Source of the DNA: Candidatus Poribacteria bacterium
Lineage (GTDB): Bacteria > Poribacteria > WGA-4E > PCPOR2b
Direction of reading: 5' to 3'
Length of the DNA stretch: 64,000 bases
Assembly: GCA_965208675.1 (NCBI GenBank)
Contig: OZ242351.1
Coordinates: 3,232,001-3,296,000, forward strand
Below, piece by piece: positions 185 through 51,592 of the stretch. The number at the start of each line of letters is the position of its first letter. Position 1 is the stretch's first letter. Both the position numbers and the translations under genes were made by a program. Under the pieces are notes generated by a model that worked only from the letters and a program-made list of their open reading frames with translations, had not been told where the DNA came from and ran no database searches.

Positions 185-1588
185 TTAGAACAAATCACGC
201 ATTGAGCGTCGGCGATCTTCTTCCACTTGGTCCTGGAATTCCTCATCGCTTGGTCGTTGCCACGCGGTTGGTACACGTGATGTGTACTGCGCCACCTCAC
301 TCTTCCGCTTGAATACCCTAAAATACTCGAACCGCGTGAGGGTAGGAGGAATATTGCCCGGACAAAGCGCGTGCAAACCAACCTGAACCGGATCGCCCAT
401 GCCGACATGTGTTTTTCCGCAGCTTTGCCAGTTCGTACCATCAGAACTAGCGAATCCAGAAAAGAGATTCCCTGTGCGTTCAAGTCGAAGGAAGAGCGCC
501 CTTCCCCGATTATGACTCGCCGACACGCCTATCAATCCCGTACCACGGCCAACGAGGGAGTAAACTCTATTCATATGCCGTTCAAAACGAACATCGCCTC
601 TGAATGCGTGGGGAGCGGAAGTTTTCTCTAACCTAACGAAGGCATGCGGCCCTTTCCATACAATGAGCCCACCGTGTTCTCTCTGCTCAGGGGTTACGCG
701 AATCCGGCACTCAATGGCAAAATCGCCGGACACCTCCATTAATAGACGCGGGGCATCCATGTTGCCGCCATGTCCCGGCGGACTGCCGTGCCATAAATCC
801 TGTCCGGGCTGAACATGCATTTCTAGATAACCCTGGCTCTCTGACCACGTACCGCCGCCATGGGGATCCTCCCATTTCCATTCCGGGCGCATCTGGTTGC
901 CGATGAATTCATCTTCAAAGACTATCTCAGGAAATTCGCTGGAGGAAGACCAGCCTTCAATCTTAATAGAGGAAATTGTATCTCCGAAATTCTGAGGCAG
1001 TACGTGGAGGTTTTCAATTTCCTTTTTATAATCCTTAGGTTCCATCTGGATTCGTACTTGAGCACCTTCGAAGTTCGTATGTTGATAGAGTATCACCTCG
1101 GCGCCATTAGGTGGAAAATCTGGGCCCTTGAAGATGCGAACAGAAGAAACTGCGTCGTGAAGTCCTTGTTCCCAGTGGACAATATCACGCAACACTGTGA
1201 TTTTCTGGCCCTGAAAATCTATATGCTCATAGCATTCGACAATCAGGGGAATCGTTCCCCATTCGGGGCCAACAGTCTGTAAAACCGACCCGAAGCTAAT
1301 CGAGGAGACGATATCTCCAAAGTCGTAAGCCATTTCATGCAAATTCGCATAAATCCCCGGCCCAAGTGGTAGCTTCCGTCCTTTGAAATCGGCGTGTTCA
1401 TGAAGGATGACTTTATAATTTGGACTTGATGCAAAATTGGGTCCTTTATAGACTCTGAGAGAGGAGATGTTATCTTGAAACCCAATTTCTGCTGTTGACC
1501 GGACCGGCTCAATTACAAACCCTTGTCTACCTTGGAAATCATGGTGTTGGAACACCTCAACGACTAGACGTGGTATTACGACTGGCAT
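185..1588 (-). CDS. Beta/gamma-crystallin repeat protein with C-terminal DUF1349/ConA-like beta-sandwich
   Basis: Four F/YxHxDFxG...D-x-I/V-S-S units (e.g. VFQHHDFQGR..DNISSLRV, LYQHTNFEGA..DTISSIKI); C-terminal APRLL..GDF..GGLIVW..LRLERTGN..SSDGTNW pattern. Confidence 0.75.
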   Translation of the reverse strand: MPVVIPRLVVEVFQHHDFQGRQGFVIEPVRSTAEIGFQDNISSLRVYKGPNFASSPNYKVILHEHADFKGRKLPLGPGIYANLHEMAYDFGDIVSSISFGSVLQTVGPEWGTIPLIVECYEHIDFQGQKITVLRDIVHWEQGLHDAVSSVRIFKGPDFPPNGAEVILYQHTNFEGAQVRIQMEPKDYKKEIENLHVLPQNFGDTISSIKIEGWSSSSEFPEIVFEDEFIGNQMRPEWKWEDPHGGGTWSESQGYLEMHVQPGQDLWHGSPPGHGGNMDAPRLLMEVSGDFAIECRIRVTPEQREHGGLIVWKGPHAFVRLEKTSAPHAFRGDVRFERHMNRVYSLVGRGTGLIGVSASHNRGRALFLRLERTGNLFSGFASSDGTNWQSCGKTHVGMGDPVQVGLHALCPGNIPPTLTRFEYFRVFKRKSEVAQYTSRVPTAWQRPSDEEFQDQVEEDRRRSMRDLF

Positions 1589-1798
1589 GTTTTCCCCCGC
1601 GAAATACGATTTTTCAAATTAGATTATTCTAGTAGTTTTCACCCGACCGGTACAAAATCTAACTGTTTCTCTCTTTTTCTCCGAGGCGAGGTATTCGTAC
1701 CTCTCTGTTGTTTCAGGTTGAGTTGGTTTCTTTTTTCCTGTTTTCCCGTAGGGAAGTTAGAATACTCCATACAGTGATAAAGTGGTGTCATCTTTAAG

Positions 1799-2623
1799 CT
1801 ATGATAGGTAACGTTCCATTCGCAACCTGCACTCTTGGGCAACATCCAACGGATTCCATTCCCAGTGCTTGGGGCTGACAAGCTCACAAGACCATATCCC
1901 ATCAAACCCTGTCGATTTGACCGCACTAACCCACTCCTCAATCGGAATTTCACCATCTCCAGGCAGGTATCCCCTAAGTTCCGCCTCATTCCATGGAGCA
2001 CCTGTTTTGTGCGCTACCCCATCGCAGAAATGAACCGAGTAAATCATTGCACTATCCAACTTTGCCACCTCGTCAGGTGTCGTACCGCCTCCAGCGTAGA
2101 GGTGCCAAAAGTCGATTACCATCGCCACGTTATCCCGATCAGCCTCTTCAATAACCTGCAAACTCTGGGACAGAGAGTAGATTGGCGCCCAAGCGATGGG
2201 TTCAAATTGAAAACTCACGCCGTGTTGCTTCCCAATATCTGCGATATCGGCGACGTTCCTAGCTGTCAGCTTCAATATCTCGCTCCACGGCCTCCCTTCA
2301 AGGCGGCAGAAAGCCACAATCTGAATGGTCGGGCATTGGATGGTTGCAGCGGCAATGCAGAGCCGCTCCACTTCCGTGAGCAGTTGGTCGCGCTCTCGAC
2401 CATCCACACGGTCAATGTCTCGCACCGAATTAATCATGACAGGCCGGACATCGTTGGCCCGAAAGATTGGGAGTAATTCCTCAGCTTTAAATCCTTGGTC
2501 CAAATAACGTAAAAGCTTGCCCACTTCAATTTCTAACGCCTCATGGTTAGTCTCGAAGGCAACCCGGATATCAGTGATGAGATTACAGTACATTATGGAC
2601 ACACCATGCAACGCAATGATCAT
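1799..2623 (-). CDS. Sugar phosphate isomerase/epimerase (xylose-isomerase-like TIM barrel, IolH/IolI-like)
   Basis: Metal ligands FEP, DFWH, VHFCD, PGDG and SCE. Confidence 0.85.
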   Translation of the reverse strand: MIIALHGVSIMYCNLITDIRVAFETNHEALEIEVGKLLRYLDQGFKAEELLPIFRANDVRPVMINSVRDIDRVDGRERDQLLTEVERLCIAAATIQCPTIQIVAFCRLEGRPWSEILKLTARNVADIADIGKQHGVSFQFEPIAWAPIYSLSQSLQVIEEADRDNVAMVIDFWHLYAGGGTTPDEVAKLDSAMIYSVHFCDGVAHKTGAPWNEAELRGYLPGDGEIPIEEWVSAVKSTGFDGIWSCELVSPKHWEWNPLDVAQECRLRMERYLS

Positions 2624-33515: not shown

Positions 33516-33806
33516 AAAAAAAAAGATCTATAACTCTCGCTAATCGAGAAGCGGTTGATGCAATATCATTAGGTGGAGCGTTTGAAAATCGTAGCGTTTG
33601 TTGAAACGGCTATGGGAATTGCAAGGCTAGTTCAGGGGAAGTGTCCCAAACAGATTCACGTTTCAGGAGCCGAAAAGTATAGAGAGTATCTGAATGGAGA
33701 CATTGTCCTCAAACTTAATATTTATTCAGTAAATATGTATTTATATGGAAACTACACCAGCGTATGTACAAATGTAAGATTCACTATCTGGGGGACTGTT
33801 ATATTT

Positions 33807-34125
33807 GTAGGTTGAGTTGAGCGGAGATGGTGAATCGGAGGGAGTATTCTGAAAGGAATCCGTATGTTGAGATTGCTTGATGGGAGTTTATAATGAAGCG
33901 TAACCCAACGCATTTGAAACGTCTGGAAAACGAACCGGTTAATTCCAACCGCACAACAATCGAAACAATAAAAATCAACAGAAGGCATAAGGAGTCGTTT
34001 GGCGTTCGCAACGTCCTAACCCACGTGTTGAATTTCTGTTGTCCAGAGGTTTTAAAAGCGTTGGGTTACGCGGAAGACTATCGCCTTCGCTATCCGCTCA
34101 GTTGATCGCTCTACCCAACCTACAA
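33807..34125. repeat. REP/REPIN-like element (GTAGGTTG(G/A)GTT family)
   Basis: GTAGGTTGAGTTGAGCG..GCGTAACCCAAC paired with GTTGGGTTACGC..CCCAACCTAC; similar units at 48655-48725 and 50468-51060. Confidence 0.7.
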
Positions 34126-34182
34126 GAACTTGAGGAGGTCTCGCAAACAAACCCACCTGCGTTACCAGTCAATGTTTTGGTT

Positions 34183-35325
34183 TCAAGTGTCGGACTCGAC
34201 AAATCGAGCTATTGCGTTTTTCTCCCACTCCTGATAGCTGTCCGGGTTGTTCCGAAACCTTTTCCAAGCACTATTCAGCAACTCGACTGGGGAAGTGAAG
34301 GTCGATTTCAGTTCATGCCCGGAAACCTCTGACTCATGAAACTCACGTGGTTCAGTTTCGGTGAGCATATCATCCAACTTCTGCTGAATTATTGGAAGAA
34401 ATGCTGGGGCGTAGAAGCCATAATAGTGGTTCTCGGCGATTCCTAATGCGGAAGCGATCTGGTTCCATTCGTCTTCTAAATCGGCAGCAACTGCGTTGGA
34501 ACCCATCTGTCGGACGCGGTCGGCAAGGAGTTGGATTCGTATCCAAGTAACTGGATGGCTTCTGTGTGCGAGTTTTTCCACGTGGTATTGATTTCGTCCC
34601 AGCATTCTAAGGTACATCGAAAAAGCGTGAGTGAACGCCGCACCACCTATCACAAACCCGACAGCGTCACAGAAGAATTCTTGTGCCCAAGTGTACCATG
34701 TTTCAACAATTATCGCTCGATTTGTCTCTAGGGCGTTTGTGTACCTGTCATTCCTAACCACGTCCGGGAGAAGCAGTCTTTTAATTTCTTCTTGTAACTC
34801 CCGGACTAAATCGTCCATCTCCTTTTGATGGCATCTGTAGAGCAAATGCCCAAATTCATGGAAGTAGAGGGGTAAGTTGAGTAATCCTTGCTGGGCAGCA
34901 CATGGTGTGAAGTAGATACTGGCACCGGTCAGCCAGATACTGAATTCCCCATCACAAACTGCAACTGGGATATTTTTTGTTTTCGGATGTGTTGCGTGTA
35001 ACCATAGCAATAATTTCAAGGAGAGCCGATCTGAATTGCGAGCTCGCAGGATTGGGCTAACATGGCGTTCGTTAAATACATAAAATTCTCGGGATACCTT
35101 TTGTGTCTCGCTTAAGATGTCTTCAAGAAGATCTTGCCGTTCGGTCTCAAGGTATTTAAGATTTTGAAGCACGCTACGGCTGAAATCCTCACAAATCTTG
35201 GTAACCCAAGCTGTATATCCCGTCAGTTCCTTTGGAATGTCATTGCCTGCCTGTCTTAAGCTGCGTTGTAGTTTCCGAATTTCATGGCGTAGAGCAACGT
35301 TGTTCTGTTGAAGGAGTTCTTGCAA
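34183..35325 (-). CDS. Soluble HExxH zinc-metalloprotease-like protein (M48-like motif order)
   Basis: FHEFGH...QEFFCD...SHP..IR; TTG start with AGGAGGT RBS, directly after the upstream stop codon. Confidence 0.65.
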   Translation of the reverse strand: MQELLQQNNVALRHEIRKLQRSLRQAGNDIPKELTGYTAWVTKICEDFSRSVLQNLKYLETERQDLLEDILSETQKVSREFYVFNERHVSPILRARNSDRLSLKLLLWLHATHPKTKNIPVAVCDGEFSIWLTGASIYFTPCAAQQGLLNLPLYFHEFGHLLYRCHQKEMDDLVRELQEEIKRLLLPDVVRNDRYTNALETNRAIIVETWYTWAQEFFCDAVGFVIGGAAFTHAFSMYLRMLGRNQYHVEKLAHRSHPVTWIRIQLLADRVRQMGSNAVAADLEDEWNQIASALGIAENHYYGFYAPAFLPIIQQKLDDMLTETEPREFHESEVSGHELKSTFTSPVELLNSAWKRFRNNPDSYQEWEKNAIARFVESDT

Positions 35326-35781
35326 CTAAATACCTCCTAAAAGCTGACTAACGTCACTTTCCAAATGTTCTTCAATGAGCGTTCGGAGTTCTGCCAAAAT
35401 GGAGAGAATCGCTTGTTTGTCTGCCTCTTCGTCAGAGTGCAAAATCTGCACCACTCCTGAAAGTTTATCTCGAAGCAATGGCGATTGGATTCTGTAGTTA
35501 CGTCTCGCTTCTATAAAATTTTCGACAAACTGCTGTCTGCGCTGATCTATGCCGAGCAGAGGTTGTTTTTCGATTTCAGCGTCTTGTACCTGACGTTCGA
35601 GTTCTTTGAAAAACGAACACAACTCATTTTTTGCTTTGGTGACCGCCTTTTCATCATTTAAATCAGAGTGTCCCTCAATTTCCAATTTGGTGTGAATTGA
35701 CAGGTTATTAACAGCAGAAAGCAGTTTCTGATTTTCGTGAAAACTTTGAACAGCTAATTCTTGAGGTTTCATGGTTTTCAT
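35326..35781 (-). CDS. Hypothetical alpha-helical protein translationally coupled to the protease-like gene
   Basis: 151-aa ORF rich in E/K/L/Q; zero-bp gap to 34183-35325. Confidence 0.75.
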   Translation of the reverse strand: MKTMKPQELAVQSFHENQKLLSAVNNLSIHTKLEIEGHSDLNDEKAVTKAKNELCSFFKELERQVQDAEIEKQPLLGIDQRRQQFVENFIEARRNYRIQSPLLRDKLSGVVQILHSDEEADKQAILSILAELRTLIEEHLESDVSQLLGGI

Positions 35782-35881
35782 TCCTATATTATCTTCTCAA
35801 TGCTTTGGGTTACACCAAATCTGAAAAATAAAGTCGCATTTAGAGATTTTGAAACGCTATGAGGTTTCGGAGGGTTTGGGC

Positions 35882-35904
35882 GGGCGAGGGAACCTCGCCC
35901 CTAC
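35882..35904 (-). repeat. GTAG-type REP hairpin between pAgo and the downstream gene pair
   Basis: Minus strand GTAG-GGGCGAGG-TTC-CCTCGCCC, a perfect 8-bp stem. Confidence 0.7.
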
Positions 35905-35951
35905 GCATCTGTTTTCGTTAATGAGAAGAAATCCTTCGGAAATGGTATTAC

Positions 35952-38237
35952 TTATCGAATCCGGCGAACTTGTTGTGAATCTCGACTCTTAAGTTCGTCA
36001 TCGGTCCGCTTGAGTTCAAGTGGGAGCTTTTGAGCAACTCTGGGATTGGAAAAATTGAGATGTGTAGACGCATAAATAGCTCTGGCTACACGAGTCATGT
36101 CGATGTTAGCACTTTGACCCTCGAGCATAACCGGATCAGCTGTCCCTTGATGTAAGGTCGGAGATCCAGTCGTAATAAGAACAACAGTGCGTTCATCTAT
36201 GCGAATAGCTTTGCCCTCAAGCCCTTGGTCAACTTTCTTTCTCTGGGTTCTCTTCCACAGGCGAATATTTTTCTGAGTGCTCTTACGGAAATCTACCACA
36301 TCTACCTCTACTCCTTCGACAAGAAGCCTATTGGTAACCAACGTCTCCACTGCTTCGTTGATACCTTCTAACTCACTACCGCATTCGCGCCCATCACGTA
36401 GAATGAGAACAGAACGGAGTGGTCGAAAGTCCCTCCATTCTGCAGCATCCTCAAAGAGTTTAACAATTTCTTTGCGTAAAGCAGTTTCATTAATTGTTTC
36501 AAGTCTATAGTCGAATTTTTGTTCAACAACTGTTCTGATGTGAAGATATGGATGGAGAATAAGAAGGGATAGTGCAAAATGCCGCCGCTCTCTCCCAACA
36601 TCGATTGCGAGGTGAGCATCATAGTCAGGCATATCTGTGAATCCCCAAAATACACAATCCATCTGCTGTAGCACATCCAAAGCAATCATTTCTGTAAATG
36701 AATTCCAACCCTTTTCGGCTTTAGAATGTTGGCTACTATGGTGCCCCTCATTCAATTTGAGCCTGTCAAACTTGTTTTTTAGTTCTCTGAAAGTGATTCG
36801 CTTAACCCGCCAGTTAGAGAGCTCATAGGCGACATTATAGTAGGTTTCCGGCGATTCATCATCAAAAACAAATACAACGATTCCAGGGTCGAAGTTATGG
36901 TTAAGTTCTGAGAAGACCTCATCCAGTTCATCGTACGTTACGAGTTGCGGTGTAATATGCTCTTTTGTCAATTGCTTTAAATGCTCGGTGATATCCATAA
37001 GGAGAGCCCCTCGCATCTCTTCCGCTGCCTTATTCGGTATGGCAAATTGAACGACCCTCTTCATCATCACAGGAACACCTAAGCAGCCGTTTTTGCGTAA
37101 TAAGGCGGATCGTTGATGATAGTGCCCTTGGAATTCCTTAGAATCTCGTCTCCGTGGTGCCGGCAGAATAGCCTCATTAGAGAATTGCAATCCTGGTGGT
37201 AAAAGGTTGATGATCTTCTCAGTGGGTGGTTGCCAGAAGTCCCGAGCGACATACGGCTTTCCAGGACCGAATAGGTCATTTCCGAGGTCTTTCCAAAAAT
37301 CACTAATAAGCCAAGCGCGCTTGTATGGAGCGAGCTTGTCAATCTGTTTGAGTGAACTCGGAAGTGCATCGTTCATCACCCGCGAACGAAGCAATTTTGC
37401 TGCAACAGGTTTTGGTTCGTCCATATCTTTGAAGGATACCATTACAACGCTGTCATTAGGATTTATCTTTAAATGAGGTCGCTTCTGTCGGTAGTATTCA
37501 AACAAGGAACCATACGTTTGCCCCTCGACAAACAGTGGACCAATAGTTTCACAGGTTTCCTCTTGTAAAGGTTTCTCAAAGTAGCATTTAATCTGGTTGT
37601 TTCCTAAGTCATACAGCAATGTTCCTTTTCTTCCATATTTGCGCTGACTTAGAGCCTCGAAATCCTCTTGCAAACGCTGCTGCTCATGGTTTAGGATGTC
37701 ACATCTAAAGACATCAGCTAATGTTTTGTGGGTAAAAAACGCCATACTAACGTCTACTGAAATCCCAACACCGATGTCTTCTATTGCAATTGCCGAAACT
37801 TTAAATTGCCTGTGAACATCAAAGCCTTCGACGGTTTTGCACGACTTGGTTTCTTGGAAGATACGTGTACCATCAACGGTCGGCATCTTTAAACGGCGTT
37901 TTATTTGAATTAGGGTGTGTCTTTCAATAAGTTGAGCGAGTAATGAAGCGTCATTTCCAGATTGTGAAAATTGGAGCCTTTGTTCTTTTCCACTGTCCTC
38001 CACTTCGATAATCCAATTTCCCTCTTCCACCTTTACGAAAGGAATTCGACCTCGTGTGAATACAAGAATCTGTTTTCGTATTGGACAATAAACAGCTGCC
38101 AGATTCCGACCCTCCAGTTTACTGCAAACCTTTTCCAGTATTTTGGGGGAGTAGTTCTGCGTTGTGATTCTAGCATATCTCGTCCGAAGATATAGGTTTT
38201 TTCCTGGCTCTACAATGCGAATATTAGTTTCAGTCAT
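35952..38237 (-). CDS. ago: Long prokaryotic Argonaute (N-PAZ-MID-PIWI) with predicted intact DEDD tetrad
   Basis: PAZ-like GSLFEYYRQK..INPNDSVV; PIWI AIDVG, LETINE, ILRDGR, DFRK, GTADP, LNFSNP..KLPLELKRTDD; 761 aa. Confidence 0.88.
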   Translation of the reverse strand: MTETNIRIVEPGKNLYLRTRYARITTQNYSPKILEKVCSKLEGRNLAAVYCPIRKQILVFTRGRIPFVKVEEGNWIIEVEDSGKEQRLQFSQSGNDASLLAQLIERHTLIQIKRRLKMPTVDGTRIFQETKSCKTVEGFDVHRQFKVSAIAIEDIGVGISVDVSMAFFTHKTLADVFRCDILNHEQQRLQEDFEALSQRKYGRKGTLLYDLGNNQIKCYFEKPLQEETCETIGPLFVEGQTYGSLFEYYRQKRPHLKINPNDSVVMVSFKDMDEPKPVAAKLLRSRVMNDALPSSLKQIDKLAPYKRAWLISDFWKDLGNDLFGPGKPYVARDFWQPPTEKIINLLPPGLQFSNEAILPAPRRRDSKEFQGHYHQRSALLRKNGCLGVPVMMKRVVQFAIPNKAAEEMRGALLMDITEHLKQLTKEHITPQLVTYDELDEVFSELNHNFDPGIVVFVFDDESPETYYNVAYELSNWRVKRITFRELKNKFDRLKLNEGHHSSQHSKAEKGWNSFTEMIALDVLQQMDCVFWGFTDMPDYDAHLAIDVGRERRHFALSLLILHPYLHIRTVVEQKFDYRLETINETALRKEIVKLFEDAAEWRDFRPLRSVLILRDGRECGSELEGINEAVETLVTNRLLVEGVEVDVVDFRKSTQKNIRLWKRTQRKKVDQGLEGKAIRIDERTVVLITTGSPTLHQGTADPVMLEGQSANIDMTRVARAIYASTHLNFSNPRVAQKLPLELKRTDDELKSRDSQQVRRIR

Positions 38238-38243
38238 ATACAG

Positions 38244-39209
38244 TTACTCCTTTGGACAGACTTCTTGAAATTGACACAAAGCACATACCTTCGGTTGGGC
38301 ATAAGGGGTGAAAGCATCAGCAATCCACTGCTGCCCGAAGCGGTGCGCTGTCTGCATCTGTTCTAAATCTTGAAGAATTTTCGCTTTAGTTCGTTTTAGG
38401 TCCTTCTCAGTTACACTAAAAGTTGACACAATATCGTTAGCCAAATGGACCCGATGAAGCGTTATACGATCAATCGGGATTCCAAATTCCTGTTTCGCCA
38501 ACCATGCGTAAGCTAACATTTGCAGACTATCATCGCTGTTTCCTGCACTTCCGACTTTCCAATCAATTATTACAACTCTATCGTCTTCCCAATAGACAAG
38601 ATCTACTGTCCCTCTCAAAGTAAAACGGGATTCTTTCAAGCGCATAGGTTTCTCTATCTGTGTGGTGGTTTGGCATGCACTTTCACGAAACTGAGCAAAA
38701 TTTTGGCTCTGCACAAAGTTAGTCAATGCTGTAATAAGCCGTCTTCCCGCCTCGATGCAAACGGGTTCAGCATCCGGTAAATCGTAATAGAACTCTAATA
38801 ATGACGCAGGTGGATGATCTCCATCTGGAATCCTGTTTCCGCTTTCATATTCGCGAGAGTACACCAAATCCGCCCAGTACATCTTCCGAGCCCAACTCAG
38901 TAACCGGTCAAGTGACCATTGTTCGCCTTGCTGATTTTTTTTCAGATAAGTCCTAATAACCAAATGCAATAGATTTCCCGTTCTTAGGTGCCGGTTCTGG
39001 AGTTGTTTCAGAAATCGGAGCTTTTCCTTTTCCGGATCGTTGTTAGATTTCTTTAAACTGGGTCCGTAATACTGATAATAGTACTTTCGAGGACATTGTT
39101 CTAAAACGCCGCGGCGGGAGTAAGACCATTCCGAAAAAGTAGGATTTTCGGATTCAGGTATTCGCTCTGTTTTGCTTTTATGAAATAAAGCTAACTGTAT
39201 TGAAGACAT
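38244..39209 (-). CDS. Cas4/RecB-like PD-(D/E)XK nuclease with [4Fe-4S] cysteines
   Basis: SYS..QCPRKYY, G..LH, IE..RGTVD..IIDWK..QM..Y, C-terminal CALCQFQEVC (1+3 Cys). Confidence 0.88.
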   Translation of the reverse strand: MSSIQLALFHKSKTERIPESENPTFSEWSYSRRGVLEQCPRKYYYQYYGPSLKKSNNDPEKEKLRFLKQLQNRHLRTGNLLHLVIRTYLKKNQQGEQWSLDRLLSWARKMYWADLVYSREYESGNRIPDGDHPPASLLEFYYDLPDAEPVCIEAGRRLITALTNFVQSQNFAQFRESACQTTTQIEKPMRLKESRFTLRGTVDLVYWEDDRVVIIDWKVGSAGNSDDSLQMLAYAWLAKQEFGIPIDRITLHRVHLANDIVSTFSVTEKDLKRTKAKILQDLEQMQTAHRFGQQWIADAFTPYAQPKVCALCQFQEVCPKE

Positions 39210-39225
39210 GTATCATCTCACGCAT

Positions 39226-39570
39226 CTAACGCAGTTTCTTAAGCTGCTGTGTAAGTGTTTCCCACTCGTCATTTGTGAGTGTCATAGTTTGCGCTTCACG
39301 TAGGAATTGCTGTGCGATCGGGTTCTCACTAATAGCTTCCTTTACAGGAGTCGGCATCTTTCGCGTCATCGCTAAGAGTTTATCGGGTGGTATACCAAGT
39401 GTCTCACAGATTTTGACGATAGTATCCGCAGCAGGGGGCGGCATCCGATTGTTTTCAACCTTGCTGATATAAGAAAAATCCACACCAACCGCAGAAGCAA
39501 GTTCACGTTGAGTGATACCCTTACTCCGCCTTAGATTCTTGAGGGTCTGTCCGAAGGTTTTAGTTTCCAT
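39226..39570 (-). CDS. XRE-family HTH transcriptional regulator
   Basis: FGQTLKNLRRSKGITQRELA..VDFSYISKVEN; start taken at ATG 39570 downstream of the promoter. Confidence 0.92.
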   Translation of the reverse strand: METKTFGQTLKNLRRSKGITQRELASAVGVDFSYISKVENNRMPPPAADTIVKICETLGIPPDKLLAMTRKMPTPVKEAISENPIAQQFLREAQTMTLTNDEWETLTQQLKKLR

Positions 39571-39587
39571 TGTTATCACCGCTAACA

Positions 39588-39618
39588 ATTATAGCATGAA
39601 GTTGAGTTGAATGTCAAC
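39588..39618 (-). promoter_or_regulatory. Consensus sigma70 promoter with palindromic operator over the -35
   Basis: Minus strand TTGACA-N18-TATAAT with extended -10 TG; GTTGA-N3-TCAAC palindrome at 39606-39618. Confidence 0.8.
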
Positions 39619-39669
39619 ACAATTTACAAGACAAACTTGCCTTAATTTTACTTATTTTTGTGGTCTAAA

Positions 39670-39717
39670 TTACCGTTGGCACTGCCCCGGACTGAATGGG
39701 CTTGATTCAATATCCAC
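39670..39717 (-). pseudogene. Truncated gene start (possible AAA-ATPase N-terminus remnant)
   Basis: Strong RBS AAGGAGGTGA, then GTG-DIESSPFSPGQCQR*; SPFSPG resembles the NPF.PG start of AAA/STAND ATPases. Confidence 0.35.
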
Positions 39718-39935
39718 GTTTTTCACCTCCTTCACATTCCAGCCGCTGCAGTTGCCTCTGTAATGGTCGCAAGTTGGCTAATGCAAATCATTAACTTTGT
39801 CTTAGATTCATATGCTATCCGACCGCATTTTCTGATACGCGCTAAACCGAAACGTCTCCAGCAAACCACAACGAATAAACGCGAGCCCGCCGACGTTGAA
39901 ATGAATTGAGTACAGGTTTGCAAGTTCAAGCCAGT

Positions 39936-41123
39936 TTAAATGCTGAGATTTAGGAGGTGATACTTCGTCTTTGCAATTTCACCAGTGGTTGCGCTTTTTT
40001 CGATCGTTTCTTGAATTTTAGCTGTGTATTCTTTACTTAAGGTCGCAGTACGAATAGCTTCAATTTTTAGGGCTTCGTCCGCAATGGCGCCCGAATAGGT
40101 TTGCTCCGTAGTTCGAAATTGAAACGTCTTGTTTGGCAGGGATGCGCCTATCAAAGTACCAGTTTCCAAAAACGTCAACGGTTCTTCCTCTTCGAATTTT
40201 TTAAGAATTTCAATTGCCTTACGTATCTGATTTTTTGACAAGCCTGCTGTTCCGCCGCGTTCCGGATTCGGCGATACCCACGTAAATTGTGTGTCGGTTA
40301 CGGATTTGTTTAGGTGTTTCAGAAACTTGGCGTAACTGTTTGCAACTCTTAATCTGAGGTGCCCCAAGAGTTTTCTGAGTTCTTCTTGCTCGCTCCCAGC
40401 AGTAAGGAGATTCAGAAATTCATTTATCGCATTTCCCAATGAACTTTCGTAATGGATTTCGCTAAAAAGATTGGGAATCTGTGTTGCGCCGAGACGAACG
40501 TCGAACGATCCGGCACCCACGTCCAATAGTGACAGTTGCATTTCCCGCCTGATACCTCCAGTGAGATGTACCGACCTGTAGTAAACTGTTCCAATATTGT
40601 TGAGCACGGCTTGAAGCGATCGAAGAATATTGCTAAGCGGATTGAGTGGTGCTTCGGTCCTGAAAACCCCATCAAAATTCAACTTCAGGTTAAGTATTTC
40701 TCGATTTTCCGATTTCGCAATTTCCTCTGGATGGCTTAGCACAGGGAGGGTATCCGTTTTAAGATGGAGGCGTTCACCTGGAATCGGCAGCATGTCCGCA
40801 GGAATTTGATGGGCTGATATAGATTCAAATTGTGGCGTACCCTGATCGCCATATGGGACTATAGCCTGGATTAAACTACCATCTTCAGGATCTGCAAATG
40901 CCTCATGGAGGTCAATCGCTCCCGACCGAATGCGTTTTAGTCGTCCCTCAGAAATCCCCGCATACAGCCATTTGTCATGTTGGTCATTTTCATCAGCGGC
41001 AACAACAAGGTAAAGATGTCCAGCGGCGTTTCTGCAGGAAAAGAGAACTGGCTGGTCGTAGTATTCGAAGGTTTCTAAGATTTTCAGTTGTCCCAACATT
41101 GGGACATTGAGTAAATCATCCAT
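39936..41123 (-). CDS. DUF6575-like N-terminal domain protein
   Basis: ETFEYYDQPVLFSC..YL..W.Y..IS..RL..I.SG.IDL.EAF N-terminus, plus a GSF-containing central/C-terminal region. Confidence 0.55.
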   Translation of the reverse strand: MDDLLNVPMLGQLKILETFEYYDQPVLFSCRNAAGHLYLVVAADENDQHDKWLYAGISEGRLKRIRSGAIDLHEAFADPEDGSLIQAIVPYGDQGTPQFESISAHQIPADMLPIPGERLHLKTDTLPVLSHPEEIAKSENREILNLKLNFDGVFRTEAPLNPLSNILRSLQAVLNNIGTVYYRSVHLTGGIRREMQLSLLDVGAGSFDVRLGATQIPNLFSEIHYESSLGNAINEFLNLLTAGSEQEELRKLLGHLRLRVANSYAKFLKHLNKSVTDTQFTWVSPNPERGGTAGLSKNQIRKAIEILKKFEEEEPLTFLETGTLIGASLPNKTFQFRTTEQTYSGAIADEALKIEAIRTATLSKEYTAKIQETIEKSATTGEIAKTKYHLLNLSI

Positions 41124-41156
41124 TGTTTACCACCCTGTGAGACGATTGCTAGTCTT

Positions 41157-41561
41157 TTACCTGTCAATAACGAGAAAGACGGTCCAGGGCTTTGCGTCAA
41201 CGGGTACCCACCACGTATGATGAGACTTATAGTCAATTGATGGTGTGTGTTTTATCACGCCATGCGTCGGATTTAGGTTGCCTTCCGCAATCTGTCGGTT
41301 TTTGAATTTTCTGGCCCGTTTCTTCGTTCGCTCTAGACGTTTTTGCACGATTTGTTCGCTATCTTGCAAGTCTTTTTGAACGGACAGTCCACACCGTGTT
41401 ACCTTTGGAATATCGGTAAATTGATTTGGATTTGCTTCATAGACTGATTTGAAATCTTTTTCTTGCGGCGGGTTGTTTCGTACAAGACGGAAGAATGTAC
41501 CGGAAGCAGGTACGGCGTCCTCTGGCGGACAATTTTCTGGAAAAAAGTCTGGCCACTTCAA
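41157..41561 (-). CDS. Small protein with ART/RES-like R-S-H motif
   Basis: PENCPP..FRLV..DF.S..CGLSV..SHHTWW; TTG start; 33 bp upstream of the DUF6575-like gene. Confidence 0.55.
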   Translation of the reverse strand: MKWPDFFPENCPPEDAVPASGTFFRLVRNNPPQEKDFKSVYEANPNQFTDIPKVTRCGLSVQKDLQDSEQIVQKRLERTKKRARKFKNRQIAEGNLNPTHGVIKHTPSIDYKSHHTWWVPVDAKPWTVFLVIDR

Positions 41562-41721
41562 ATAGGAATTCCCTTCATTCGATAAATGATTGATTACCGA
41601 GTGTCATGTTTTGTTTTTTTTAACGTTTCGACAAATTATACTATACAGATGTGTTGTTTTCAAATCGATATAAGAAAGCAGATTTGTGATTTCTTAATGG
41701 TTCAGTGTGCTCTTGAGGGTT

Positions 41722-41835
41722 TTATCCCTCTGAGTTATCGACGATAGCCGTGGGCAGGCATTCGATAATTCTAGTTGATTCGACGCTGACGTGGACGATG
41801 CGTTTAATGGCGGCGAGGAGGTCGCGGGGGCGGTG
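41722..41835 (-). pseudogene. Remnant of a type ISP restriction-modification enzyme C-terminus
   Basis: Start-less frame RPRDLLAAIKRIVHVSVESTRIIECLP..* resembles the terminal helix of LlaBIII-type ISP enzymes; locally GC-rich. Confidence 0.5.
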
Positions 41836-42096: not shown

Positions 42097-42891
42097 CTAC
42101 ACTTTGTCGAGATGACTTGAAAACTTACGGTCACGACGGCCAACCCAGTATCCAATAATGATTCCAATGATGAATCCAACAAAAATAAGAACCACAAAGG
42201 TTTGAATTGTAAAATCTAAAGTCATAGTCCACTCCTTACTTTCTTCAACTTTTGTTTTAAGGGTTACGCAAAAGGCTATTACCAAATATACAAAGAACAT
42301 CGCCCCCCGAAGACGTTGGTGTTTCAATAAGCTTTTGCAACTTTTTCTGCGATACCTCAAATGCGAATCAAAACCTAGAATTTCCTCAATCTGGTGAATC
42401 CGCGAGAAGCGAATTTCAAATCTCCTTTTTGAGATTAAAGATGATAGGTACCAGTAGGTTATAAGCACCAACCCGCCGGTAACCCCCAATAGCTCTGGAG
42501 CGGGGTCCTTCAAATATGGTAACGTAAGTGCGACAATAGAGAGAGGCAGCAAAACAGCCGTCCATTTTGAGATCCAGTCATCATCCTGTCTCCAACAAAC
42601 ACCAAGTTCTTTATATTCTTCTAACAACCGATTTTCAACTTGGCAATCTAATTTTCTCAGCAGCGAATATAGACGCTCAATAGTAAAATTGGCTAATTTT
42701 TCAGTTTTGAGTTCTTCGAATCTGCATTCGCTCAGTTCCAAAAAGGCCGCCGCGTCACTATCGTTCATTTCGCGGCTGTCGATCAGGCAATTTATCCTTG
42801 ACGCCAGAAAATGTTTGGTCGATTGTTCATTCGAGTCGTTGGTACGCAACTCTTTGCAATCTTGTATGATGTTGCTTCTACGTTTTGCCAT
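42097..42891 (-). CDS. XRE-like HTH fused to a multi-pass membrane domain
   Basis: LASRINCLI..AAAFLEL..NFTIERLYSLLRKL (HTH), then LEEYK..WR..[TM][TM]..IHQIEEILG..[TM][TM]. Confidence 0.6.
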   Translation of the reverse strand: MAKRRSNIIQDCKELRTNDSNEQSTKHFLASRINCLIDSREMNDSDAAAFLELSECRFEELKTEKLANFTIERLYSLLRKLDCQVENRLLEEYKELGVCWRQDDDWISKWTAVLLPLSIVALTLPYLKDPAPELLGVTGGLVLITYWYLSSLISKRRFEIRFSRIHQIEEILGFDSHLRYRRKSCKSLLKHQRLRGAMFFVYLVIAFCVTLKTKVEESKEWTMTLDFTIQTFVVLIFVGFIIGIIIGYWVGRRDRKFSSHLDKV

Positions 42892-45057: not shown

Positions 45058-48024
45058 TTACAGCACAACCTTCGACTTCTTCCCACCGTGAATACTGGGT
45101 TCGGCACACAACCGCTCGCGGAGGTGATGCAAGCCCGTATGCACCTCCGGATGTGCAGTCTCAGATATTCCAAGGACCTCCGATAACAACCGTCGATCTA
45201 GTTCCTGACGCACCATATCTTCGTACATCTGATTGAATGGAAGCATCTTTTTGTGCTTCATCTCCTCAAATATTCTCTCGGCATTTTGCAATGCGTACTG
45301 ATCCAATTGACTCACATCCAACGTTGGCATTGACCGCAAAAGCGTTAAACGTATTGCCCCTCTACCTGCATGTACTCTGTTACAGCGCATCCAGTAATTC
45401 AATAAGCCCAGGGTTGAGTTACCCCACAATGCAAAGGCGTAATCGTGTGACGGGTTGCCAAACATGACATTGGGTAATAAGCGGATACCGATTGAAGGTT
45501 TCTCTGTGAATAGCACAGATAATGAATTCGAATTAAAACGTAATCCTATATTCAAGTGGATGCGGCTATTCCTGTCTAATATCCGTTGGGCTTTTTCCCA
45601 ATAATCGGGACGAATGTCGCCGTGTGAATCCGGTTGGACCACCATAGCACGTTGTATATCTGAATTGACGTGCCATAAGCCCGGATACGTATCTGTATCG
45701 GAGCAGCCAACTTCCATATCAAATGCCCCACGCGCCCCTTTAATCATTGTTTCGTCAAAACTAGTGGACGCAATTTTCTCAACAGTGCAGGTTGGGATTT
45801 CAAAAGGGGCGCGCTGCTCTGGTAACCAAATACACCCATTTGCCAAATGGTAGGCCGATTGCATTAACGCAAGCTCGCCAATGCAAGAGGTTGTCCATAT
45901 CTTATCCAACGGACAATTTAACGCAGACCCGACTATTTCATCCCCCACCTTGATGTGATTCCCACCAATCGGCGGATCTTCGAGCTTTCTGACTCCCTGA
46001 AGACTCTGAATCTGCTTACCTGTTTCAACCGCCTCTAAGTGGCTATTTGGCCGGCGGTGGAGACAGACAAATGTTCCACGGCCAGTGTTTTCCGTTGCGC
46101 CTTTTATTGCAACGACGAGGCATTCCGCCATGGCGGTATCGGCAGAAAATGCGCAGTTATCCGTTTTTTGATCGGCAATCGTAACTACGGTAACGTTATG
46201 ATAAGTAGAAGCCCATAGGTCACGTACCCTCTGCCAGTCTGGAGAAGTCAATACAGTGAGGGGAAGCACAAACCCCATCGTGGGCGGCCACATGGTGGTA
46301 TTTTCCTTCCCATTTTTTAACATTCGATCCGCAAGGTCAACGAAGTAAGAACCAAGCCCTGCATTACTATGTGCAATTGAGGTTTTTATACTTCGAAGCG
46401 CAGCTTTCATTTCTCGGGCAACATCTTCATTCCTATCTCCGAACACAGTCTTTGGAATATCAGGATTTTGCGAACTGGTGTCTGCTCCCGTCCGCGTAAA
46501 GGGCGGATTATCGACAATAATGTCAAACTCACGGTGCCGAAACTCGGGTTCAGGTGTGTCGCGATCGTCACCCTGAATTCGCTTCGAACGAAAATACACT
46601 TTCGCACGATCTAACTCTAATGGATTCGTCTCCTCCGGGTTTTCGAGTAGATCCAATGCTCCTATCGAAAATTGTCCATCGCGTCTTTGGGTGCCGTATT
46701 CCATAGTATGGATGCGGGTCTTCCCGATTTTTACATCCGGGTAGGTACTGGCTATAATCGAAGCAGTGAGGTGGCTGGCATTCGGCATGATGTCAGCCCC
46801 TAAGAGGTTATTCTCTACCATTTGCCGGTGAATATCCTTACCGCTGCCACCAGCCTGTTCATGGAGTGCTAATATTCGCTGGTAAAGCCCGTTTAGTAGC
46901 GCTCCAGTGCCGCAAGCAAAATCGGCAACCTTCGGGAAAGTGCGTAACCCACCATTCAGAGAAGGCTGTTGGTCGGGTAAGACGAGACCAGAAAGCAGGG
47001 CAACGGATTCGGGGCGCGTGTAGTTCGCCTTGATGAATCTGCGGTCGACAATCAACCGTTGGAAGACTATTCCTGCTAACTCATGTACCTGTTCTAGACG
47101 CCGCGTGATTAGTCTTTGGGCAGTGTCACGCAAAATGCGCAACACCTGGCCGACTAACGCATCATCTGTTGCGAGCACCTCCTCGGTTAGACGATACGCA
47201 ACATCAAAAATTGGACGGTAGTTAACCCGAATAACAGCTTTCCAAGCGTTCAAGACTTCATTGACGCTAAGTTGCTCAGCAACAGTTTGAAGTTGACTAA
47301 GGGAGGGTACCTCTTCCATTTCCGGGGTGCCAGCGAGGGCGCTCTGAAACACAAAGGCATTGGTAATTATTAACATCGCCATCCGATAGGTCTGTTTGCC
47401 TGCTTTTTGGTAAAGAATACCCTCAATGGTTTCTGCGATGCGACTACGTGACTCTGCGGTTTCGGCGAGAAGGGATGCGGCTTCATTTACGCCGCGTTCT
47501 AAATCCTCCGCGGCTTCGGAAACTTTGGAAACGGGAATTGCACCGATTCGGAGCGCAGCGGCAACGTCACCAATATTTCCAGCGATCCAACCGTTTTTGG
47601 GAAAACGGTGCGGATTGGTAATACGGTGAAGATCGTCTATGCTAAAGAGGGCGTACCGGAAGTCATCGGCACGGCGGAGTGCGCCGGAGATTTCCGCGGT
47701 ACTAAGTTTACGAAATCGATAGGGGACTCGTAACGACATTGCGGTTTTTAGCATTTCAAAAGGTGCCACATATTCTCCGAGACGTCCTTTCGCTTGTTCT
47801 TCCCCATCCAAATTTGCCGTATGTGCATAGTCAATTTTTACCTCTATGACTATTGGTTCTCTACCGGTTTCAAATACAGTTATATCGGGGCGTTTGGTTT
47901 CGAGCAGCAATGGCAACTGGGGTTCTACTTTCCAGGTATTTCTACGCTCGCGCAATATATCTGCTATGTAGGTCGTGATGGTGTCTTCAGCCTGCATATC
48001 CTTTATCCCTTGATCACTATCCAC
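45058..48024 (-). CDS. Type IIG/IIC-like single-chain restriction endonuclease-N6-adenine methyltransferase
   Basis: N-terminal RPDIT..IEVK (PD-(D/E)xK), motif I DFACGTG, motif IV DNPPF, C-terminal TRD-like region. Confidence 0.85.
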   Translation of the reverse strand: MDSDQGIKDMQAEDTITTYIADILRERRNTWKVEPQLPLLLETKRPDITVFETGREPIVIEVKIDYAHTANLDGEEQAKGRLGEYVAPFEMLKTAMSLRVPYRFRKLSTAEISGALRRADDFRYALFSIDDLHRITNPHRFPKNGWIAGNIGDVAAALRIGAIPVSKVSEAAEDLERGVNEAASLLAETAESRSRIAETIEGILYQKAGKQTYRMAMLIITNAFVFQSALAGTPEMEEVPSLSQLQTVAEQLSVNEVLNAWKAVIRVNYRPIFDVAYRLTEEVLATDDALVGQVLRILRDTAQRLITRRLEQVHELAGIVFQRLIVDRRFIKANYTRPESVALLSGLVLPDQQPSLNGGLRTFPKVADFACGTGALLNGLYQRILALHEQAGGSGKDIHRQMVENNLLGADIMPNASHLTASIIASTYPDVKIGKTRIHTMEYGTQRRDGQFSIGALDLLENPEETNPLELDRAKVYFRSKRIQGDDRDTPEPEFRHREFDIIVDNPPFTRTGADTSSQNPDIPKTVFGDRNEDVAREMKAALRSIKTSIAHSNAGLGSYFVDLADRMLKNGKENTTMWPPTMGFVLPLTVLTSPDWQRVRDLWASTYHNVTVVTIADQKTDNCAFSADTAMAECLVVAIKGATENTGRGTFVCLHRRPNSHLEAVETGKQIQSLQGVRKLEDPPIGGNHIKVGDEIVGSALNCPLDKIWTTSCIGELALMQSAYHLANGCIWLPEQRAPFEIPTCTVEKIASTSFDETMIKGARGAFDMEVGCSDTDTYPGLWHVNSDIQRAMVVQPDSHGDIRPDYWEKAQRILDRNSRIHLNIGLRFNSNSLSVLFTEKPSIGIRLLPNVMFGNPSHDYAFALWGNSTLGLLNYWMRCNRVHAGRGAIRLTLLRSMPTLDVSQLDQYALQNAERIFEEMKHKKMLPFNQMYEDMVRQELDRRLLSEVLGISETAHPEVHTGLHHLRERLCAEPSIHGGKKSKVVL

Positions 48025-50467: not shown

Positions 50468-51060
50468 GGAAGACTATCGCCCTCTCTATTCGGTCGGTTG
50501 ATCCTTCGCTATTCAGTCAGTTGATCCCCGCCTACTGCAATAAATTGACCCCCTCTAGCTCCCCCTTCTCAAGGGGGAGGATTTGCTAGAGAAAACTATC
50601 GCCTGCGCTGTTCGGTCGGTTTACCCGTCGCTATTCGCTCAGTTGATCCCCGCCTACTACATAAACTTGATTGGTCGTTTGATCGCTCGACCCAACCTGC
50701 AAAAGCAGCGCTAATGATTGAAGCGTATTTGAGGGAAATTCCTTCCAAAATTCGTAAAGTTCTTTTTTTTGACGGACAATCAGCAAATTTGTGCCATAGA
50801 ACCCGCACCACGTATGGGTTTACAGTACGCCACAATTGCTAATTCAGGCAAACCAGTTTCTTATAAAATTGTAACAATTTTTGGATTTTCGGAGGTTTTA
50901 AAAGCGTTGGGTTACGCTCTGCAAATTATTTCGACGTCACGGTAATGGAATTGGGACGATGTTCGTTCGCAAAAGCGGTATGGTAACTACCCGCTCAACC
51001 CAACCTACAAAAGCTAGAGAAAAGCTATAGAGCTCAGTTGATTGCGCAACGCAACCTACA
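50468..51060. repeat. Cluster of REP-like units at the right edge of the island
   Basis: Repeated ACTATCGCC, CAGTTGATC and CCCAACCTAC; GAGGTTTTAAAAGCGTTGGGTTACGC is identical to the copy near 34046. Confidence 0.7.
50792..50876 (+). repeat. 85-bp direct repeat, copy 2
   Basis: See 48772-48856. Confidence 0.85.
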
Positions 51061-51592
51061 AAAATTTACGCGAACGGAATGTGGTTTCACCGAACAGGGA
51101 GAGTTGGCCGCCGGTCAGACGATTGATGATTTCAGCTTGGGACTGGGGTGCGTCGTTTTCGTCAATGTGGACTACCGGTATCTCGCCGTCAGTTAGGGTT
51201 GCGCCAATCAACTTGCTGCGGTGGCACGTCTCCGGTTTTCCCTCGCTGCACATGACGGCTATGCGTTGTTGTTGAGAGAAAGTGGTTTGGAGACGGATGA
51301 TTCCGTCGGCGTAAAATTGCGTCGCTTTTACCATCTCGTAATCCACAACCCCGTTCACGTAACAGTTTTCATCGTCGGGATGACCGCCGAGCGTATCGCC
51401 CATGAACATATAGCGTATATTGTGTTGCTGCAATGCCTCCGCCAGCTCCGCTTTGGAAAACTCCGGCTTGTAGCGCGAATAAGGCGTCGAACGTACATCG
51501 ACGAGGTATTCAATTTCATACCGCTGCAATACCTCGACAAACTGTTCAAAGGTGCGGCTTCCGTAACCGATGGTGTAAATCGGAATAGTCAT
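51056..51592 (-). CDS. DUF488 family protein
   Basis: IYTIGY, LVDVRS.PYS, LGG, MCSE..PETCHRS. Confidence 0.88.
   Translation of the reverse strand: MTIPIYTIGYGSRTFEQFVEVLQRYEIEYLVDVRSTPYSRYKPEFSKAELAEALQQHNIRYMFMGDTLGGHPDDENCYVNGVVDYEMVKATQFYADGIIRLQTTFSQQQRIAVMCSEGKPETCHRSKLIGATLTDGEIPVVHIDENDAPQSQAEIINRLTGGQLSLFGETTFRSRKFL

Follow-up and report, generated by a model that had tools for sequence, protein, structure and literature searches.

The closest described relatives of the locus analysed here are the operons of the DNA-guided, RNA-cleaving (D-R) prokaryotic Argonautes (pAgos), a class in which the available text of three reports places PliAgo, VbAgo and MbpAgo (PMC9360449; PMC13219720; PMC13346755). 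As far as the available text of Lisitskaya et al. (2022) goes, the operon of the PliAgo group consists of a helix-turn-helix (HTH) regulator, a PD-(D/E)XK Cas4-like nuclease and the pAgo, and that of the PnyAgo group of a sigma-70 factor, a nuclease and the pAgo (PMC9360449). A second described partnership, APACE1, joins a catalytically active cyanobacterial long-A pAgo to the Cas4-family enzyme ACE1 (D-DxK motif, 1+3 cysteines); in the accessible sections of its source, ACE1 averages 278 aa and is reported only in cyanobacteria, APACE1 pAgos cut DNA, and the related ACE2 averages ~313 aa, carries a 28–41 aa insertion with respect to ACE1 and occurs mostly in Bacillota, with APACE2 itself left uncharacterised (Bobadilla Ugarte et al., 2025; PMC12094033). 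We analysed a pAgo locus in a 64-kb stretch of a Candidatus Poribacteria chromosome (contig OZ242351.1, positions 3,232,001 to 3,296,000), hereafter the window. With moderate confidence, we read positions 34183-39617 (-) of the window as one horizontally mobile five-gene defence cassette, operating by the mechanism proposed below.

A preliminary description of the window had presented this locus as an autoregulated three-gene operon encoding an XRE-family regulator, a Cas4-like nuclease and a long Argonaute, possibly an undescribed subtype, with the pAgo/Cas4 partnerships of cyanobacteria as its precedent. The three minus-strand open reading frames (ORFs) lie where it placed them, with gaps of 16 bp between the nuclease and XRE ORFs (39210-39225) and 6 bp between the Ago and nuclease ORFs (38238-38243), and the domains and motifs of an intact pAgo and Cas4-family nuclease module with its own XRE regulator are all present. 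The three-gene core is nevertheless of a known kind, published in 2022 and covered by models in PADLOC, so that the architecture cannot pass for an undescribed subtype, and the HTH/nuclease/pAgo operon set out in the available text on D-R pAgos is a closer precedent than the cyanobacterial one (PMC9360449). The operon also extends beyond three genes.

A set of 34 related loci from species-representative genomes was searched with the window proteins, and a recurrent order on one strand is evident: XRE, nuclease, Ago, p151 and p380, the last two encoding a small helical protein and a zinc-peptidase-like protein (Table 1). The five genes were collinear by tblastn in 27 of the 34 loci, and in 28 once L026 is counted, where tblastn had missed a 151-aa p151 orthologue. 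Four further loci are cut by contig ends (L004, L009, L024 and L034), and L033 is a remnant in which XRE adjoins a C-terminal Ago fragment and the nuclease and p380 are missing (L033 6637-8117). Co-conservation of nuclease and Ago, on which the three-gene proposal depended, is borne out by the presence of the nuclease in 32/34 loci, the exceptions being one 1.3-kb contig and one remnant. The p151 and p380 genes follow Ago wherever the contig reaches, except in one remnant, and are conserved as strictly as the nuclease. Across loci the median intergenic gaps are, in cassette order, 9.5, 4, 42 and 0 nt; the gap between Ago and p151 is 170 bp in the window, against the median of 42 nt elsewhere. 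Judged by this conserved gene order, the unit is five genes, 34183-39617 (-), rather than three. A divergent copy, L015, comes from a Candidatus Poribacteria metagenome-assembled genome (MAG). Its Ago is 43% identical to that of the window, and a 304-aa ORF bearing HNH-like Cys/His motifs takes the place of XRE (L015 4987-5901 (+)).

Table 1. Coordinates of the genes and sites of the five-gene cassette in the window.
Feature	Position	Strand	Basis or remark
Sigma-70-type promoter (TTGACA, 18 nt, TGn-TATAAT)	39588..39617	-	12/12 match, TG before -10 box
Operator-like motif TTGACATTCAACTCAAC, candidate XRE binding site	39601..39617	-	Overlaps -35 box and spacer
XRE-family HTH regulator, 114 aa	39226..39570	-	HTH_19 4.3e-15, HTH_3 5e-15 (Pfam)
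Cas4-family PD-(D/E)XK nuclease, 321 aa, ATG start	38244..39209	-	PDDEXK_1 7.7e-24
Long pAgo, 761 aa, ATG start, DEDD tetrad D546/E580/D615/D746	35952..38237	-	PADLOC, structure model, profile
p151, small helical protein, 151 aa, no known family	35326..35781	-	Between Ago and p380
p380, HExxH zinc-peptidase-like protein	34183..35325	-	Starts directly after p151 stop codon
Terminator-like hairpin	33936..33951	-	~230 nt beyond p380 stop; pattern scan; candidate operon end

The Ago protein has no Pfam match at E<=0.1 and matches the PADLOC pAgo models at up to 1.3e-33. An AlphaFold model built from 30 sequences (mean predicted local distance difference test, pLDDT, 88.8; predicted template-modelling score 0.86) retrieved 265 Foldseek matches at E<=1e-3, including Pseudooceanicola lipolyticus Ago (PliAgo, 7r8h; E 1.3e-42, template-modelling score 0.72 over ~818 columns, 16% identity) and 8xih (template-modelling score 0.74), followed by Siwi, KmAgo and CbAgo. 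According to the model, then, the 761-aa protein is a full-length Argonaute fold (N-PAZ-MID-PIWI), and the PIWI assignment made from the sequence survives a comparison that could have overturned it. The predicted catalytic tetrad has likewise held: D546 (IDVG), E580 (ETI), D615 (RDG) and D746 (RTDD) are invariant in 30/30 family sequences, down to 31% identity, and in alignments fall on the tetrad residues of MbpAgo and VbAgo.

Profile comparison relates this family most closely to the D-R enzymes. The Ago family profile searched against PDB matched VbAgo at 1.4e-43, MbpAgo (8xih/9wmd) at 1e-32 and PliAgo at 1.1e-26, the last over the PIWI half only; the next-best Argonaute was the DNA-targeting CpAgo, at 7e-7, and short pAgos followed at ~1e-5. 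We took 8xih together with 9wmd as MbpAgo, as 9wmd is cited in the MbpAgo paper and the 8xih alignment is identical to it residue for residue. In addition, K743 lies three residues before D746, a position at which D-R pAgos have Lys and other pAgos His, according to the available text on D-R pAgos (PMC9360449). Among characterised pAgos, sequence comparison therefore places the window Ago nearest to the D-R group. The anti-plasmid or anti-phage module put forward in the preliminary description, if taken to mean DNA interference, does not fit this kinship well, since the nearest relatives cleave RNA in vitro.

The divergence of this Ago, already suspected from its sequence, is evident in the absence of any Pfam match and in the labelling of its homologues. 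An exhaustive search of 1.84 billion representative proteins with the Ago profile gave 731 matches at E<=1e-3, of which 560 reach E<=1e-10 and 236 reach E<=1e-30. Among full-length proteins, family members have scores from ~550 bits upwards, and the one ranked after them has 205 bits. All named family members are labelled 'hypothetical protein' and carry no precomputed Pfam domain. In a quick, unrooted IQ-TREE search of 36 Agos, run with no outgroup, 30/30 family members fall on one side of a branch with full support (Shimodaira-Hasegawa approximate likelihood-ratio test 100; stem of 3.34 changes per column), and the sampled sigma-type and XRE-type relatives both fall on the other. The family thus looks like a new, deep third branch beside the two published D-R clades and inside neither. 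Its MID pocket may set it apart as well: MAFFT places Y466, A470 and K479 at the first three positions of the canonical (Y/H/R)KQK 5'-end pocket and finds no conserved fourth Lys, in an alignment that is uncertain at 15–20% identity. K479/R480 fall within W-R-x-K-R-x-T; T482 aligns with the His of the XRE-type (RHSY) group, and Y466/A470/K479 align with the H/K/Q of the sigma-type group. Tentatively, the pocket fits neither published D-R type, RHSY (PliAgo group) or HKQK (PnyAgo group).

Compared with the PliAgo group, the window locus shares the first three genes and their order, the DEDD tetrad and the Lys three residues before its last Asp, and its PliAgo is the best structural match. It differs in the low identity of the Agos (~16–17%), in its separate clade with a long stem in the quick unrooted tree, in a MID domain that by alignment lacks the RHSY His, and in a shorter Ago (761 vs 789–857 aa). 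With the PnyAgo group it shares the core of nuclease, Ago, small protein and p380 found in three sigma-type loci (L042–L044); the differences are an ECF-like (extracytoplasmic function) sigma factor and a ~190–200 aa protein in place of any XRE, and H-K-Q in MID where the window Ago has Y466-A470-K479.

The nuclease bears out the earlier prediction of a PD-(D/E)XK enzyme with four iron-sulphur (Fe-S) cysteines. It matches the PADLOC model 'Aga_Cas4-like_Nuc' at 1.7e-29 over its full length, and C39, D203, D216-W217-K218, Q230 (LQMLAY), C309, C312 and C318 are invariant in 24/24 sequences. The motifs characteristic of Cas4 (D...DxK, QxxxY and 1+3 Cys, with one N-terminal and three C-terminal cysteines) are thus all present. 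The protein scores below the curated Cas4 cut-offs (TIGR00372, 53.1 vs 65 bits; Pfam Cas_Cas4, 22.5 vs 22.7) and well above that of PDDEXK_1 (85.4 vs 22). Most orthologues are 296–336 aa long. Like APACE1, the cassette co-encodes an active-site-bearing long pAgo with a Cas4-family enzyme, and APACE1 offers a working model for guide trimming; compared by length and host, the two differ, as the cassette nuclease has 321 aa and its named homologues come from Poribacteria and other non-cyanobacterial MAGs. The available text on APACE1 describes no XRE, p151 or p380 and does not mention PliAgo (PMC12094033). Compared by description, APACE2 is similar in that the nuclease length is compatible (321 vs ~313 aa) and ACE2 is found outside cyanobacteria, and differs in that ACE2 is reported mostly in Bacillota.

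We examined the sister D-R operons for counterparts of the p151 and p380 genes. The PADLOC pAgo_II model matched 6 of 401 Bacteroidota genomes, and 16 kb around five canonical loci were compared. All five encode the nuclease, Ago, a small ORF of 121–147 aa and a p380 homologue of 375–379 aa, the latter matching the p380 profile at E 3e-23 to 4e-22 over nearly its full length. Their regulators differ, with a sigma-70 factor upstream in three loci (Pfam-confirmed in the two checked) and an XRE in the other two, L045 and L046, where the small protein and p380 homologue again stand after Ago. In the converse search, a cross-group p380 alignment run against what are apparently the same 401 genomes gave matches at E<=1e-132 in exactly those 6; these strong matches always adjoin the pAgo, and a single weak outlier was also found. 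The small sister proteins resemble p151 weakly (hhalign probability 63%, E 7e-5 over 110 columns). From these comparisons, a small-protein and p380 pair seems to follow Ago in all three branches, and the pairing is apparently new. The available text of the D-R paper does not contain the words 'protease', 'peptidase' or 'unknown function', and its Fig. 1b or Supplementary Fig. 1 may draw the genes or list members (PMC9360449); operon partners are not taken up in the accessible parts of the structural papers on MbpAgo and VbAgo. A full-text literature search returned no paper tying a pAgo operon to a metalloprotease, and nothing further on APACE2 or the partners of D-R pAgos.

The sigma-type operons have an additional conserved ORF of 187–202 aa between the sigma factor and the nuclease (L042 5445-6053, L043 5416-5991 and L044 5430-5993). 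It had no Pfam match in the two that were scanned, and is a candidate anti-sigma partner.

The alignment of p380 reveals a pattern of zinc-peptidase motifs. Within the family, FHExGH, E216, C219-D220, H257-P258 and R263 are invariant in 20/20 members, and across the three operon groups H156-E-x-x-H160, W210, W213, E216, C219-D220, H257-P258 and R263 are invariant in 10/10. Peptidases of the M48 (Ste24/HtpX) type carry HExxH, then E-x-x-A-D some 55–80 residues further on, then H-P-x4-R, and p380 has three comparable blocks: H156-E-x-x-H160; E216-F-F-C219-D220, 60 residues further on and with Cys in the place of Ala; and H257-P258-x4-R263-I. The four M48 peptidases of the host genome, whose alignment is invariant at HExxH, S-R-x-x-E-x-x-A-D and H-P-x4-R-I, all carry HExxH followed 56–78 residues later by E-x-x-A-D, in the same order and at a similar spacing (4/4). 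A p380 model with pLDDT 91.5 shows an N-terminal three-helix bundle (residues 1–96) followed by a catalytic-type domain, in which a sheet of three strands precedes the HExxH helix and the remaining helices; VIA structure searches were filled by the N-terminal bundle. Nothing convincing was found for p380 in PADLOC, NCBIfam or PHROGs, nor any match in the PDB profile search, and the nearest Pfam-named clusters in the protein atlas, Peptidase_U49 (Lit) or M48, scored 0.78, under the useful threshold. On its motifs, p380 is a candidate M48-like zinc peptidase whose membership of that family is unproven.

Its partner p151, of which 20 sequences were aligned, has no convincing family in Pfam, PADLOC, NCBIfam or PHROGs, where a single sub-threshold Pfam row was returned; the one lead from the atlas, hemerythrin-like, has a score of 0.82 and so falls short of what the tool itself counts as meaningful. 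Translation of p151 perhaps starts at M4 (35772), the residue at which the atlas sequence begins. Elsewhere, in L054, an unannotated 468-aa ORF (922-2328 (-)) matches the ExxCD-HP region of p380 weakly (E 2.3e-6) and lies directly upstream of a dCTP-deaminase-like gene (301-921 (-); DCD 3.8e-41); the two genes may form another defence-like pair, with the ORF as a remote relative of p380.

At the head of the cassette, the XRE regulator is its best-conserved protein (47–95% identity within the family); its HTH is N-terminal and is joined to a C-terminal helix by a conserved linker that includes G70 and K71. It matches the PADLOC models HTH_VI (2.2e-15) and capH (1.2e-12; residues 7–119 of the 120-aa reading against model positions 2–98 of 103), other generic HTH models scoring about as well as capH. 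The identification of this gene as an XRE-type HTH stands; its proposed start does not. The ORF as originally listed runs from a TTG at 39588 to 39226 on the minus strand (120 aa), and that start was rejected on two grounds, its position within the -10 box and the use of the ATG by orthologues. A 25-sequence alignment, in which the within-family orthologues begin at most 1–2 residues from the equivalent of ATG 39570, indicates that this ATG is the true start of a 114-aa protein (METKTFG...).

The perfect TTGACA/TATAAT promoter noted in the preliminary description is present, and is the sole 12/12 match among 9 promoter-like sites in 33800-41800; loose sites of this kind are not enriched there (9 found vs 12.8 expected from shuffles). 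Aligned upstream regions show the same promoter layout in the orthologous loci of Poribacteria. The operator-like motif overlapping this promoter, TTGACATTCAACTCAAC, occurs once in the 64-kb window, against 0.02 occurrences expected. If up to one substitution is allowed, its conserved arm, CAACTCAAC, occurs in the 200 nt preceding 30/31 XRE genes, where 0.038 occurrences per 200 nt is the background rate, and it stands mostly at -27 to -51; the 31st gene (L011) has a version with two mismatches. In most phyla the operator is a fuller palindrome, GAGTTGAC-N3-CAACTCAAC, whose left arm includes the -35 TTGAC, and this partly accounts for the 'perfect' -35 box. Because this conserved operator overlaps the promoter and no other protein of the cassette is as well conserved as XRE, the comparison supports autorepression of the cassette by XRE, as the preliminary description had supposed, and the overlap of CAACTCAAC with the -35 box looks new.

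A second inverted repeat, the perfect palindrome ATTGTTA-N7-TAACAAT at 39569-39589, fills the interval between the last part of the -10 box and the start codon of XRE; it was rejected as an operator because it is unconserved in orthologous loci, and may be due to chance or specific to the window. Several Poribacteria orthologues (L002, L003, L005, L007–L010, L017 and L033) have a second -10-like box, 'TATG(T/C)TA(T/C)AAT', ~20 nt upstream of the -35 box and operator; either an additional promoter or a duplication of the element could account for it. At the other end, the hairpin listed in Table 1 comes from a scan in which terminator-like sites around the cassette are not enriched (5 found vs 7.2 expected). 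Three RNA sequencing runs under the same species label, in which the presence of the organism itself was not established, gave 0 reads over 33800-39900.

The distribution of the cassette is wide and patchy. The closest named homologues are from Candidatus Poribacteria MAGs, in agreement with the non-cyanobacterial host proposed before, and the loci as a whole come from >10 phyla, with MAG titles that include Poribacteria, Pyrinomonadaceae, Competibacteraceae, Verrucomicrobiae/Chthoniobacterales, Scalinduaceae, Salinibacter, Desulfobacterales, Chloroflexi/Anaerolineales, Meiothermus, Bacillota, Cyclobacteriaceae, Chitinophagaceae, Latescibacterota and others. Within the host phylum a match (E<=1e-20) was obtained in 15/176 genomes, or 11/133 high-quality ones; within the host genus 1/3 other genomes has a match, and the host genome itself holds 1 copy. 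The G+C content falls to 0.41–0.45 over 34–44 kb of the window, compared with 0.49–0.55 at 26–34 kb. Together with the adjoining PD-T4-10-like gene pair described below, this patchy spread and G+C dip form the pattern expected of a mobile defence module. Decayed copies also occur: the Ago of L032 (4130-8047) is split by an insertion of ~1.7 kb, that of L021 has an in-frame stop, and the p380 gene of G002, the genome of L012, carries TAA stops (C6:839469-840827). In a Chitinophagaceae genome (G001, the source of L028), a window-type and a sigma-70-type cassette are found together (C2:87089-90267 and C14:26526-30442), so that two branches can coexist in one cell.

We propose the following mechanism for the cassette. 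An XRE dimer would bind GTTGAC-N3-CAACTCAAC over the -35 box and spacer and keep basal expression of the operon low. The Fe-S Cas4-family nuclease would make or trim short 5'-phosphorylated single-stranded DNA guides from invader DNA, a role proposed because ACE1 does so for APACE1 pAgos in the available account (PMC12094033). Guide supply by the nuclease would suit the host, whose 96.4%-complete single-contig genome yielded no RecB (at most 106.5 bits vs a cut-off of 696) and no RecC in a search confined to these two. Ago would load the DNA guides and slice complementary nucleic acid with its DEDD site. By analogy with the D-R pAgos, we lean slightly towards invader RNA as the target; DNA is a distinctly weaker, though appreciable, prospect. 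Finally, p151 and p380, whose genes appear translationally coupled (median gap 0 nt), would for that reason be expected to act together, as a zinc-metallopeptidase module tied to Ago.

What this module would do is the most tentative part of the proposal. Repressor-protease switches such as CapH/CapP of the cyclic-oligonucleotide-based antiphage signalling system (CBASS), ImmR/ImmA and BlaI/BlaR1 offer one model. The cassette resembles those switches in combining a capH-matching XRE with an encoded putative zinc metallopeptidase; it departs from them in that p380 shows no match to the M78 ImmA/IrrE type, its motifs being M48-like, and in that the protease gene lies inside the repressed operon. 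The likeliest role for p151/p380, though at less than even odds, is that of a proteolytic switch, which would remove the repressor once an invader is sensed and act on the sigma-factor partner in the sister operons. A regulatory protease is favoured because the regulator types of this clade, repressors and sigma-factor systems, are those classically subject to proteolysis, and the capH-like XRE and its conserved linker point the same way. An effector protease triggered by Ago is less likely than the repressor switch, and in our view unlikely. A third possibility combines the two components. Craspase, a CRISPR type III-E system, would have an Argonaute counterpart if pAgo and p151/p380 formed a nucleic-acid-guided protease switch, in which recognition of invader RNA by the DNA-guided Ago activates p380 and p380 cleaves the regulator at the head of the operon (XRE, or the sigma-factor partner in the sister clade). 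We offer this with low confidence; the pairing of p380 with all three pAgo branches, whatever the regulator, is compatible with it.

Several observations weigh against the mechanism as proposed. Guide and target specificity and the protease role are inferred for this family: RNA targeting is argued from relatives that share just 16–17% identity in structural alignment, and a MID pocket that aligns with neither published D-R type could mean a different guide preference. For p380, hhalign against M48 gives a probability of 5% (E 0.008) in a local alignment that pairs the ExxCD and HP...RI blocks. Foldseek returned no PDB match at E<=1e-3, the best being Ste24p at E 0.3. There was no significant Pfam match, only single weak ones across the 20 members, with M48 in 1/20 at 0.011, and M78 (the ImmA/IrrE/CapP type) was absent from the Pfam matches at E<=1 of these members. 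Cleavage of the repressor in particular has to be squared with L015, which keeps p151 and p380 and lacks XRE, and with the sigma-70-type sister operons, which keep p380 with a different regulator. Since p380 tracks Ago and not the regulator, a protease coupled to Ago remains a serious rival to regulatory proteolysis.

One such coupling is abortive infection, in which Ago would sense invader RNA and activate the p151/p380 protease to cleave an essential host protein and stop growth, in the manner of Lit or of effector-coupled inactive pAgos. The strict co-occurrence of p380 with pAgo under every regulator type speaks for it, as does the XRE-less L015 locus; the Lit/M48 neighbourhood of p380 in the atlas is a lead only, its score being below the level the tool deems meaningful. 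Effector-coupled pAgos are typically inactive, according to the available text of PMC6299218, and the invariant catalytic tetrad of this Ago sits poorly with that model, which we hold to be rather unlikely. An account along the lines of the preliminary description would take the locus as a three-gene, APACE-like module in which a DNA-guided Ago cuts invader DNA, the nuclease supplies guides, and p151/p380 are unrelated neighbours. The available report on APACE1 shows that a long-A pAgo and a Cas4-family enzyme can cooperate in DNA interference (PMC12094033), the 170 bp between Ago and p151 in the window exceed the gaps of 6 and 16 bp within the core, and a MID pocket that differs from both D-R types leaves room for DNA targeting. 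Yet p151 and p380 follow Ago in all reachable loci bar one remnant and in 5/5 sister loci, the gap before p151 is a median of 42 nt elsewhere, and the Ago profile is 20–36 orders of magnitude nearer to the RNA-cleaving pAgos than to the best DNA-cleaving one. ACE1, moreover, is cyanobacteria-only in the available text and averages 278 aa (PMC12094033), against 321 aa for this nuclease. Taken together, these points make the three-gene account improbable.

The cassette might also serve the host in a housekeeping or regulatory capacity, with DNA-guided slicing of RNA tuning host or symbiosis-related transcripts and no part in immunity; the D-R paper, in its available text, allows for either 'antiphage defense or regulation of gene expression' (PMC9360449). 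We regard such a role as very improbable here, given the patchy, horizontally-transferred-looking distribution, the low-G+C islet beside a PD-T4-10-like defence pair, and the existence of decayed copies in L033, L032, L021 and G002. The reading we prefer is accordingly the mobile five-gene defence cassette.

The PD-T4-10-like pair lies at 39936-41561 (-), directly upstream of the cassette, and consists of a 395-aa protein matching PD-T4-10_B/PDC-M63B in PADLOC (Pfam DUF6575, 3.1e-27) and a 134-aa protein with a PD-T4-10_A match (PADLOC, 4.5e-9). These genes were rejected as members of the cassette, having no match in any of the 34 loci, and are probably a second, independent defence pair; the other neighbours in the window were likewise found in 0/34 loci. 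Further upstream, a 264-aa protein (42097-42891 (-)) has an N-terminal HTH_37 domain (7.3e-11), hydrophobic C-terminal segments and a weak SLATT-like match (0.073), and may be a small defence or toxin-antitoxin-like element in the low-G+C islet. A DUF488 protein (51056-51592 (-)) matching PADLOC PDC-M45B at 2.9e-50 and a 988-aa protein (45058-48024 (-)) with a weak local match of the PglX / type IIG methyltransferase kind (~1e-5) are possible further defence genes.

Work on D-R pAgos has dealt with the isolated enzymes and with their development into RNA tools, and the available text of the papers concerned leaves open what they do in nature and what part their operon partners play. The locus described here adds to the D-R clade a large, unannotated third branch, comprising 236 representative clusters at E<=1e-30 with no Pfam assignment. 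It also provides the full parts list of a natural system, among them a small protein and its zinc-peptidase-like partner that appear in all three branches, and defines an operator for the cassette regulator. As the whole five-gene unit, and not Ago alone, can be transferred, the in-vivo question becomes directly testable. Should the peptidase prove to be coupled to target recognition, Argonaute immunity would have an output of a new kind, and a guided-protease switch, if real, would turn the sequence-specific detection of RNA into a transcriptional or growth-arrest response.

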